DNA of 62,585 nt, from assembly GCF_002854065.1 (NCBI RefSeq), contig NZ_CP024148.1; one strand, written 5' to 3'. Below are positions 45,402 through 48,400 of the stretch, piece after piece. The position numbers were made by a program. The first letter of the stretch is position 1, and each line of letters opens with the position of its first letter. This stretch comes from Escherichia coli. Lineage in GTDB: Bacteria > Pseudomonadota > Gammaproteobacteria > Enterobacterales > Enterobacteriaceae.

Positions 45402-48400
45402 TAAAAACCGGAAATAACGCCAGAAATGGTGGAAAAAATAGCCTAAATAGGCTGATTCGATGTGTTTGCGGGAAAAAAATTGGCCCAGATCCGCGAAATT
45501 TTAATCAGCGAGTCAACTTGGGAAGAAATGACCTGCTTATTCGCACCTTCCTTAAGAAATCCAGTACAATTTATCTGATATAAAAAATTATGCGATACAG
45601 AAATATTTCAGAAATTTTATTAGGCAATCATTGCGCAATCCCATACTGAATATACACTTGAGAGTATTTATAATTTGTATCTTAAAAAGCCCGAAAACCG
45701 GGCTTTTTTCTTAATTAGTGCATGTCCTGTGAATTGTCACGCTGTTGCTGCAATTCCAGATGTTCTTCTCTGGCCTGGACAAATTGTTTTCCAAGAGCAT
45801 CTTCTGCCATTTCACGAGTGAATCCGTGATTAAGCAAATCGGATTCGGCCTTCTCCCTTTCGAACTTCAGTCCTTCCCCTCTGAACTTGTCCTCAAAGCG
45901 ATCAATTGCCTCAAGAATCTTGCCGTCTTCCGGCGTGCAATCCCGTCCCTGTGCTTTCTCAATTTCATGACGCTCCACGCGTTCAGCATTTTTCATTACA
46001 GCGTCAATCCCCTGAGAAATATGTTCAGACTCGACGCGATAAATGACAGTATCGCGCTTATTGAGATCATGTAGCTCGCATTCAACCCGGCCCCACTCAA
46101 TAGCATCCTTGAGAGAGCTGAAATCTTTTATTTCAGCATTCAGGCCTTCATGTGTTGAGAAATAGACATAATCCTTCTGTTGTTCCAGTTTATTCACATT
46201 TTCAATAGCCCTTGTACTGAAATGGATACCTGTAATTACCGGAACACGAGCCGATGTTTGGTCCCCCGTTAAAACTTCAGAAGGTGTTTTTCCAGTGATC
46301 GCGGCAAATTGCTGCTCCGTAACATCCACTCTGGCAACTGCATCACCACGCTCTAAGCCATGCTTACCAGCGACCGCAAGGTGATAAAGACCACCTTCCC
46401 CCCTGGTAATTTCCGCCTCCACAACGATATCCCCATTGCAGGAACTGAACTGAGAACGGTCTTTAACCAGGAAGTTTTCAAGCCCGGAGATCATATGCTC
46501 GTTAGCTGAAATACTGGCGAGTATCTCTTCTGGTGATTCTCTGGACGAATCCCCCGCCTGTTCCATCACTGCCATATTAGCGTCATTAACAGCGTCCTTA
46601 ATTCCTTTAAAGGCGATTTCTTCTCTTGTTACAGGTGTGATTAAGATATCATCCTGGTTAAGCCCGTGCTCCTGAAGCATCTTATTTTTATATTCAGATG
46701 CGTCGTGCAATGACTCAAAAGTCTTAATATCTTCACTAAACTCATCCTTCGAAAAAGAAACCGCATACACTGGAGTACGGTATTCTTCATATGAATTGGC
46801 AATTATTTCAAATGGCCTATCAAACGTTACTAATGCCCCCTCTGGATAAGAGGATAATTCATCGGTTGAGACAGTTTTAGACATAAGCACAACAGTATCA
46901 AAACCATCACCATTTAAATAATTGCTTTCATATTTTTCTATTGCAGAAGATTTGCTTTCCTCATAACACTGAATAGCCGCATCTTTAGAATGAAAGACGA
47001 TACCTTCATTCAAATCATGGAAGCGACTAAAGTTTATACAATAAATTTCCTGTTTATTATGCACCTGCGCAGTAGCCTGATCGTGTTGAGTAGTAAGCTG
47101 CTCCTGAATCAGAGCCTGTGTTCTGTCAATACCTAACTCATTCACAATTTTGCAAAATTCTTTTGCGTCGTTTTCATTATCAAAACTGGCAACGTCAAAA
47201 ATATCATCGCTGTCTCCAGGTACATGTCCCAGCACTTCCCAAATCTCATTTTCATCGCTATCCAGAGATTTCAAATAGCCAAATTCACCATTTGTGCCTT
47301 TACTAAGCATCTGTGAATCCAGGGTGTTTGCCCTGGTAATAACACCAGGATCATATGAAGATGTGGCCTGCGCTGCGACCTGTGCTTGCTCTGTGGCCTG
47401 TGCCTGCTCTGTGGCCTGTGCCTGTTCGGTAGCCTGTTCCTGTTCGGTAGCCTGTTCCTGTTCGGTGACCTGTTCCTGTTCGGTGGCCTGTTCCTGCTCT
47501 GTAGCCTGTGCCTGCTCTGTAGCCTGTGCCTGTTCTGTAGCCTGTGCCTGCTCTGTAGCCTGTGCCTGCTCTGTAGCCTGTTCCTGTTCGGTGGCCTGTT
47601 CCTTCAATGCATCACCTTTCTCTATTCTGGATTCGGACTCCTGGCTATTTTCCTGTGTTTCCACCTGCTCAAACTTATTACCCTGAAGTTCTGCTTTTAA
47701 TTCCAGCATCATCTGTTGATACTGCTCCGGGCGTAAAATAATCTTCATGTCCTGCTCTGCGGCAACTTCAGCGCACATTTTTTTGAAATCTTCAGAGCCG
47801 GTAAGTTTGAGTACACCACCAAACTTTTCCCTGGAATACTCAAGCATTATTCCGATCTCTTCTTTTGAAGGATTTTTACCCGCAACGACAAAGTTCCCTT
47901 TGTCGGTAAAGACAGGCTTTTCCGATTCCTGATCGCGATAAACAATCCTGGAATCCTGCTTATCCATCACAAGATCTTTTAGTTTGGAGTTAACCTTTTT
48001 CGCCTCTTCTAAGCGGCGCTGGGAATCCACCGCTTTCTGAAGCGAAAGTTCGGGTTCGTCAGCAGAAATGGCGTTGATTTCATCGAAGTTGAGATAGCTT
48101 TTGAGACGTTCAAGGGCTTTCATTTCATCTTTATCCTTATGCCAGTCAGCATGATATTGACGAATTATGTGTCGCCCCTCTGTGTCGAGTTCAGAAAGAC
48201 GCTCAAGTGTGGTTAGTTTTTTGTAAACAATCACACCCACGGCAATATCACGCTGTTCACGTGGTATTAACTTCAACTCGCGTCTCATCTCTCGCAGATC
48301 ATTATACAGCTTGCCACGCTCAAACCTGATAGTATTTCGTAATGTTTTTTCCGATAAATTCAGTGAGTTAAGACGCTCACGGGCTTCATGATGCGTAAGG

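Follow-up and report, generated by a model that had tools for sequence, protein, structure and literature searches.

The window analysed here, a 62,585-nucleotide stretch of contig NZ_CP024148.1 from an Escherichia coli assembly (GCF_002854065.1), is an IncI2-type plasmid with the colistin-resistance gene mcr-1, and its relaxase gene nikB contains a tandem array of 18-bp units in the middle of the reading frame. The array is an in-frame coding variable-number tandem repeat (VNTR): the 18-bp unit is divisible by three, the repetition is far above chance, the copy number varies between plasmids and the frame is kept. We consider it probable that the array serves as a permissive polyanionic spacer between domains of IncI2 NikB, encoded by slippage-prone DNA. 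IncI2 is an epidemiologically important plasmid family, and coding VNTRs and low-complexity linkers are a known kind of feature. In full-text literature searches we found no published description of the nikB array, and the term 'tandem repeat' in IncI2 papers means other things.

Results

Read on the coding strand, residues 812-883 of NikB form 12 well-formed hexapeptide units (seven ATEQAQ, four ATEQEQ and one VTEQEQ; positions 47380-47595), followed by a degenerate 13th unit, VAAQAT, at residues 884-889 (47362-47379). Tandem Repeats Finder (TRF) reports a repeat at 47379-47603 with a period of 18, 12.5 copies, 91% matches, no indels and a score of 282. The same array is also called at period 54 with a score of 331, compared with 114 for the next-strongest repeat in the window and a best score of 59 over 30 dinucleotide-preserving shuffles of the entire window. 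A 54-bp higher-order unit was considered and rejected, as the unit types, in the order E A A A A E E E E A A A, do not recur with a period of three units. The 78 residues of the array consist of Q (25), A (21), E (17), T (13) and V (2) only, with a net charge of -17 and no basic residue. The earlier note, made from the sequence alone, had described an acidic linker of about 13 copies of an 18-bp unit at 47380-47610 with the motif ATEQEQ/ATEQAQ, and the TRF calls and the in-frame listing agree with it on coordinates, unit, copy number, motif and charge.

Both the length and the unit composition of the array vary among IncI2 plasmids. A megablast search with 1.2 kb around the array (1201 bases) matched 522 plasmids in PLSDB (418 Escherichia, 47 Salmonella, 32 Shigella and 20 Klebsiella) and a plasmid in 297 of 5,426 complete E. 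coli genomes. Allele frequencies were extrapolated from 60 rows per ranking, sampled at even intervals, in which 34 PLSDB rows and 29 E. coli genome rows matched at 99.9% identity or better over the full 1201 bases. On this basis, the exact 13-unit allele of the window is present in approximately 296 of the 522 PLSDB records and 143 of the 297 complete E. coli genomes, and the match spans of the 55 variant-length rows in the two samples are equivalent to 4 to 19.33 units. The earlier note had left room for the array being an assembly expansion; because about half of the public IncI2 plasmids have the same exact allele, the 13 units of the window are not one.

We then read the arrays directly in 24 fetched relatives with an intact nikB, picked on purpose for length diversity, which together with the window give 25 alleles. 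Array length ranges from 4 to 19.33 units, all 25 nikB open reading frames (ORFs) are intact and encode 1238-1449 amino acids, and the array length is always 0 or 6 modulo 18; the x.33 alleles have a 6-bp partial unit at the end in place of a degenerate VAEQAT unit. Besides ATEQEQ and ATEQAQ, the 25 alleles contain further unit types (TTEQAQ, ATEQTQ, VAEQAQ, VTEQEQ, TTEQVQ, DTEQAQ and ATKQAQ), and some alleles have expanded blocks of a single type, with 8-10 VAEQAQ or 8-11 ATEQEQ units. Relaxase length thus varies between plasmids, as had been predicted, and always in frame; an identical repeat number in all relatives, which would have spoken against the prediction, is not what we see.

Array differences are common between plasmids that are otherwise nearly identical in nikB. 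Allele pairs with at most one single-nucleotide polymorphism (SNP) in the flanks differ in the array in 23 of 26 cases in this sample selected for length diversity. In long-form alleles nikB outside the array amounts to 4,080 bp, and on the background of the window (0-1 SNP in 4,080 bp) we find 5 (pV80), 7 (pSH287-1), 12 (pMCR-H9) and 14 units (pAH59-58), next to the 13 units of the window, pEA-3 and pSH262-1. Backgrounds of the pRM2968-2 type (0-1 SNP) have 12, 13 and 15 units, those of the p11-0225.2 type (0-1 SNP) have 15.33 and 18.33 units, and the downstream flank of the 19.33-unit allele is identical to that of the 15.33-unit allele. The array is therefore the hotspot of length mutation that the earlier note had taken it for. 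It is not hyper-unstable, and the 13-unit allele is stable enough to account for approximately half of the public records; the epidemic mcr-1 clade mostly has 13 units. Four records with a length of 64,997 bp have a 10.33-unit allele in common; one derives from a chicken isolate and the others from isolates of the mouse gut, and from the strain names we guess them to be a donor and its transconjugants.

Every variant on the window-type background is explained by a single in-register deletion or duplication. Relative to the window allele, units 1-8 are missing from pV80 and one ATEQEQ unit from pMCR-H9, unit 6 occurs twice in pAH59-58, and pSH287-1 lacks 108 bp, leaving a hybrid unit composed of bases 1-8 of unit 1 and bases 9-18 of unit 7. 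Because the junctions are in register and include a hybrid unit, and because block expansions occur, we infer slipped-strand mispairing or unequal recombination as the mechanism, the junctions carrying the expected signature. In pAH59-58 (NZ_MN232183.1), the sole window-type allele with 14 units, the base of the duplicated unit that distinguishes GAA from GCA is an N, which suggests assembly uncertainty or a mixed population.

The array lies in mid-NikB, between the N-terminal relaxase region and the long C-terminal region, as the earlier note had placed it. It begins 36 residues past LPD7, the last conserved folded domain ahead of it (Table 1). The match of PF03432 to the N-terminal region of the window NikB is weak (17 bits, under the cut-off of 24.6); relatives have precomputed PF03432 hits, and PLSDB types the plasmids MOBP. 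In an AlphaFold2 model of residues 640-1437, made with 68 sequences in the input, the predicted local distance difference test score (pLDDT) is above 90 for residues 650-780, which cover the LPD7 region, and below 50 for residues 790-820 (model residues 151-181), which are predicted to be disordered. The array (~815-885) is drawn as one continuous helix with a moderate pLDDT of 57-76, residues 880-948 are predicted to be disordered, and two more folded regions follow at ~992-1159 and 1287-1436 with a pLDDT near 90. As the model has folded regions on both sides, with disorder and a moderately scored helix between them, the array is the main part of a low-complexity stretch of ~100 residues (~790-889) that separates the conserved core from the C-terminal modules.

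The variation between units is structured at the protein level. In the 37 distinct 18-mers, codons 3, 4 and 6 (E, Q and Q) vary almost only synonymously (GAA/GAG and CAG/CAA), and amino acid changes fall on codons 1 (A/V/T), 2 (T/A) and 5 (A/E/T/V). Relaxases at 37-58% identity, from Salmonella, Aeromonas, Proteus, Providencia, Xenorhabdus, Arsenophonus and others, align with the N-terminal 54-69% of the NikB query, and all have a segment of 20-124 residues rich in E/Q/T/A/P/S directly after the LPD7 helix. Their linkers often contain repeats that are unrelated to those of IncI2, such as ATPEQ (four copies), ATTADSPA (two), AEQVSQxE (two), EEEQTVxQA (two to three) and PASAENEATExT. Because relatives encode different repeats at the same protein position, the conserved feature at the LPD7 boundary is a low-complexity, mostly acidic spacer and not the particular IncI2 sequence; IncI2 has merely evolved a highly regular DNA repeat that encodes it.

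Short-read assemblies of IncI2 plasmids routinely break inside nikB at the array, near the mcr-1 insertion site, as is evident from more than 1,000 partial proteins and one draft contig that stop there. 'Partial relaxase' protein clusters of 808, 809 and 807 amino acids (865, 158 and 17 members) all stop at ...EKGDAL(KE), immediately ahead of the array, which puts the boundary at 47596-47612 of the window, and one NCBI draft contig breaks off 9 nt short of unit 0. A distance of approximately 1.7 kb separates the array from the nikB stop codon, and mcr-1 is nearly always inserted next to that codon. Draft contigs with mcr-1 are thereby severed from the side with the origin of transfer (oriT), nikA and the backbone, and the relaxase appears truncated in the annotation. 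Array lengths taken from short-read-only assemblies should not be trusted, and the N in pAH59-58 exemplifies such uncertainty.

Discussion

We propose that the array would hold apart a conserved core, made up of the relaxase and LPD7 (residues 1 to ~790), and C-terminal modules that can be swapped. Its near-identical 18-bp units would misalign during replication or recombination, so that whole units are lost or duplicated in register; with a unit of six codons the frame is never lost, and the protein would tolerate from ~4 to ~19 units. Most likely, the array is under no selection, or under weak selection for its composition and a minimal length. The spacer function and the functional tolerance of all lengths are our inference.

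Several points weigh against this reading. The label 'conjugative' for these plasmids is a MOB-suite prediction in PLSDB and not an assay. The nearly exclusive synonymous variation in the E-Q-x-Q codons 3, 4 and 6 hints at constraint beyond that on any linker, and concerted evolution of the units could give the same pattern. The epidemic mcr-1 clade is overwhelmingly at 13 units, perhaps through recent origin or through selection for that length. The array is predicted as helix and not as coil, so the spacer may be semi-rigid, and some of the length variants may be short-read collapses of the array.

The array cannot be an on/off (phase) switch, because the unit is six codons long; a phase-variable contingency locus was considered and rejected on the 18-bp unit and on the absence of frameshifts in the alleles (0 of 25). 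The earlier note had suggested that the linker could tune relaxase translocation or recipient interactions; the array is probably no device for fine-tuning either. In such a scheme, which we regard as unlikely, the number of units would set the reach or stiffness of the spacer and through it transfer efficiency, translocation of NikB by the type IV secretion system (T4SS) or what the C-terminal modules do in recipients, making the array an evolvability locus of the plasmid. Array length does change fast relative to point mutation, the E-Q-x-Q core is kept at the protein level with synonymous variation, a linker is retained at the same position family-wide, and in the predicted continuous helix each unit would add approximately 9 Å. 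However, array lengths across the whole range of 4 to 19 units persist in natural plasmids predicted to be conjugative by MOB-suite, and this five-fold range argues for tolerance and not tuning. There is also no visible link between array length and C-terminal architecture, and one allele is found across the four 64,997-bp records from chicken and mouse gut.

Somewhat more doubtful still is a role of the array as a functional ruler, determining how far the C-terminal modules reach from the DNA-bound relaxase, or as a nucleic-acid-mimicking decoy in the recipient. If either were true, rapid in-frame length change would adapt IncI2 transfer to new hosts or defences, and an evolvability locus would sit beside the mcr-1 insertion hotspot. 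Taken by itself, the decoy idea is improbable. It holds that NikB enters the recipient on the transferred strand and that the E-rich helix would mimic nucleic acid or titrate a DNA-binding defence protein of the recipient, by analogy with acidic anti-restriction proteins. The charge of -17 with no basic residue would suit this role, and LPD7 marks the 'polyvalent proteins', which are proposed to act early in recipients (PMC5512222), but the linkers of relatives at the same site are less acidic and rich in P/S/T, and alleles with only 2-4 units exist.

It is equally improbable that the polymorphism, or the 13 units of the window, arose in assembly, with reads too short to span the repeat causing it to collapse or expand. 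Short-read assemblies evidently fail at this site, to judge by the 865, 158 and 17 partial proteins, the contig that ends 9 nt before unit 0 and the ambiguous base in the added unit of pAH59-58. However, the identical 13-unit allele is present in hundreds of independent records, divergent lineages have other unit types (TTEQAQ, VAEQAQ and ATEQTQ), which is beyond what collapse can create, and variants are present in assemblies at complete-genome level. These include FDAARGOS and USDA RM strains, whose assemblies we take to be long-read based.

Least credible of all is a cis-acting DNA element that merely happens to be located inside nikB, for instance a set of iteron-like protein-binding sites or a site of recombination, because despite the regular 18-bp spacing of near-identical units the variation between them is mostly synonymous and preserves the hexapeptide pattern, the other reading frames yield only spurious Cys/Leu-rich ORFs, and relatives use different DNA repeats to encode a peptide of this kind at the corresponding point of the protein.

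The preferred reading, a permissive coding-VNTR spacer, has parallels in known systems. With phase-variable contingency loci the array shares repeat-mediated hypermutability at one locus, but with its 18-bp unit the frame does not shift, all 25 nikB alleles are open and only length varies. The 18-bp Ser-Asp repeats of ClfA and ClfB and the 24-bp Xr repeats of protein A, the latter used in spa typing, are coding VNTR stalks of surface proteins in the Gram-positive Staphylococcus aureus; like the nikB array, they have a unit that is a multiple of three, form an in-frame spacer between functional regions, vary in copy number among close relatives and lend themselves to typing. They are, however, cell-wall-spanning stalks of exposed adhesins, whereas NikB is a cytoplasmic, translocated DNA-processing enzyme encoded on a plasmid.

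The closest documented precedent specific to conjugation appears to be the QQP repeat that the F-like coupling protein TraD has in its C-terminal extension, with a length of 5 residues in plasmid F and 23 in R1 (PMC3245843). Like the nikB array, this is a tandem repeat of a short, Q-rich peptide that lies in an unstructured section of a protein for conjugation and differs in length between close plasmids. In contrast to NikB, TraD is a coupling ATPase and not a relaxase, the QQP unit is three residues long, proline-rich and not acidic, and it adjoins a defined partner-binding tail (for TraM), whereas NikB has no known partner. The polyvalent proteins of conjugative elements (Iyer, Burroughs, Anand, de Souza, Aravind 2017; PMC5512222) have several domains and are transferred together with the DNA, and NikB resembles them in having a relaxase followed by LPD7, a marker of such proteins, and a string of C-terminal modules. 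Unlike the proteins described there, its C-terminal modules match none of the domains named in that paper, in whose main text the words 'linker' and 'low-complexity' do not occur.

For epidemiology, plasmids with identical nikB SNPs differ in the number and order of units, and the array could resolve sublineages of IncI2/mcr-1 plasmids by polymerase chain reaction (PCR) sizing or long reads, much like spa typing. NikB length differences between plasmids should be read as array variation plus modular C-terminal indels and not as gene disruption. The conserved relaxase-LPD7 core and the swappable C-terminal region meet at the array, which thereby offers natural positions for domain deletions.

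C-terminal modules and plasmid context

The region after the array is modular, and searches of its modules by family, sequence and fold gave no identification. An exhaustive phmmer search of 1.84 billion representatives with the C-terminal 548 residues found no more than 29 related clusters; most are fragments, or other relaxases with single modules in common, in several cases at their own C-termini. A self-BLAST of the region for internal duplication gave no significant hit; by eye only, the modules show a recurring beta-beta-alpha-beta pattern with an F-x-S-x-x-D-A motif. An exact look-up of NikB in a collection of 15 billion proteins returned no match, which is uninformative, since the identical coding sequence (CDS) exists in PLSDB.

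Some IncI2 alleles lack 171 amino acids (~residues 982-1158), and others lack the first C-terminal module (~890-988), with the array joined straight to an array-like QATAQ unit. In the window, a solitary unit of this kind, CAGGCTACTGCGCAGG compared with CAGGCTACAGAGCAGG in the array, lies at the boundary of the first and second modules (Table 1). Because the alleles without the first module fuse the array to the QATAQ unit, the array may also take part in the loss of C-terminal modules. Two relatives (CP100031.1 and NZ_CP136260.1) have an insertion sequence (IS) inside nikB, IS1B within the 1.2-kb array region and IS1203, so relaxase-disrupted IncI2 derivatives exist.

Table 1 Features of the window discussed in the text, in order of position
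Feature	Position	Strand	Basis or remark
mcr-1	42669-44294	-	EptA-family phosphoethanolamine transferase; MCR-1.1 in annotation of relatives
IS5-type DDE transposase (DDE_Tnp_1 + DUF772)	44424-45404	+	Between mcr-1 and the nikB stop codon
nikB, entire relaxase gene, 1437 aa	45715-50028	-	ORF list
Variable modular C-terminal region, residues 890-1437	45718-47361	-	AlphaFold2, homologue search, allele comparison
Solitary array-like unit HDQATAQ, residues 982-988, CAGGCTACTGCGCAGG (array: CAGGCTACAGAGCAGG)	47065-47085	-	Boundary of first and second C-terminal modules
18-bp tandem array, residues 812-889	47362-47595	-	TRF, in-frame unit list, shuffle control
Acidic low-complexity non-repetitive lead-in, residues 790-811, QGNKFEQVETQENSQESESRIEKGDALKEQ	47596-47661	-	Sequence; AlphaFold2 pLDDT
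LPD7 domain, residues 691-775	47704-47958	-	Pfam PF18821, 53.5 bits (cut-off 27)
N-terminal relaxase (MobA/VirD2-like nuclease) region, residues 53-142	49603-49872	-	PF03432 match under its cut-off; H...PHIHIV histidine motif
nikA (mobC), relaxosome accessory gene, 113 aa	50025-50366	-	Pfam NikA-like 43.8 bits, MobC 29.7 bits; ORF list

The name nikB is that of the IncI2 literature (PMC8868234), and RefSeq annotates relatives of the gene as 'LPD7 domain-containing protein' or 'relaxase'. The nikB CDS of the window is 100% identical to that of the IncI2 plasmid pEA-3, the copy in NZ_CP025679.1 is annotated WP_034169409.1, and genes identical to it sit on plasmids typed IncI2, MOBP and conjugative in PLSDB. 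Directly upstream is nikA, whose stop codon overlaps the nikB start codon. The mcr-1 insertion site is typically just downstream of nikB (PMC8868234; PMC9607333); the interval between mcr-1 and the nikB stop codon, occupied by an IS5-type transposase in the window, contains ISApl1, IS1 or nothing in relatives.

Two other repeats were seen in the window. Upstream of nikA, between that gene and a divergent ORF at 50734, a GTGTGGGTT-like motif occurs approximately 10 times at positions 50525-50663 (TRF periods 7, 12 and 45) and is presumably part of oriT or of the nikA promoter region. A perfect (AATATG) repeat of 5.2 copies at 21506-21536, near the 5' end of the ORF at 21479-22015 (+) and just past the ORF at 19474-21432, is a possible second in-frame length-variable site.

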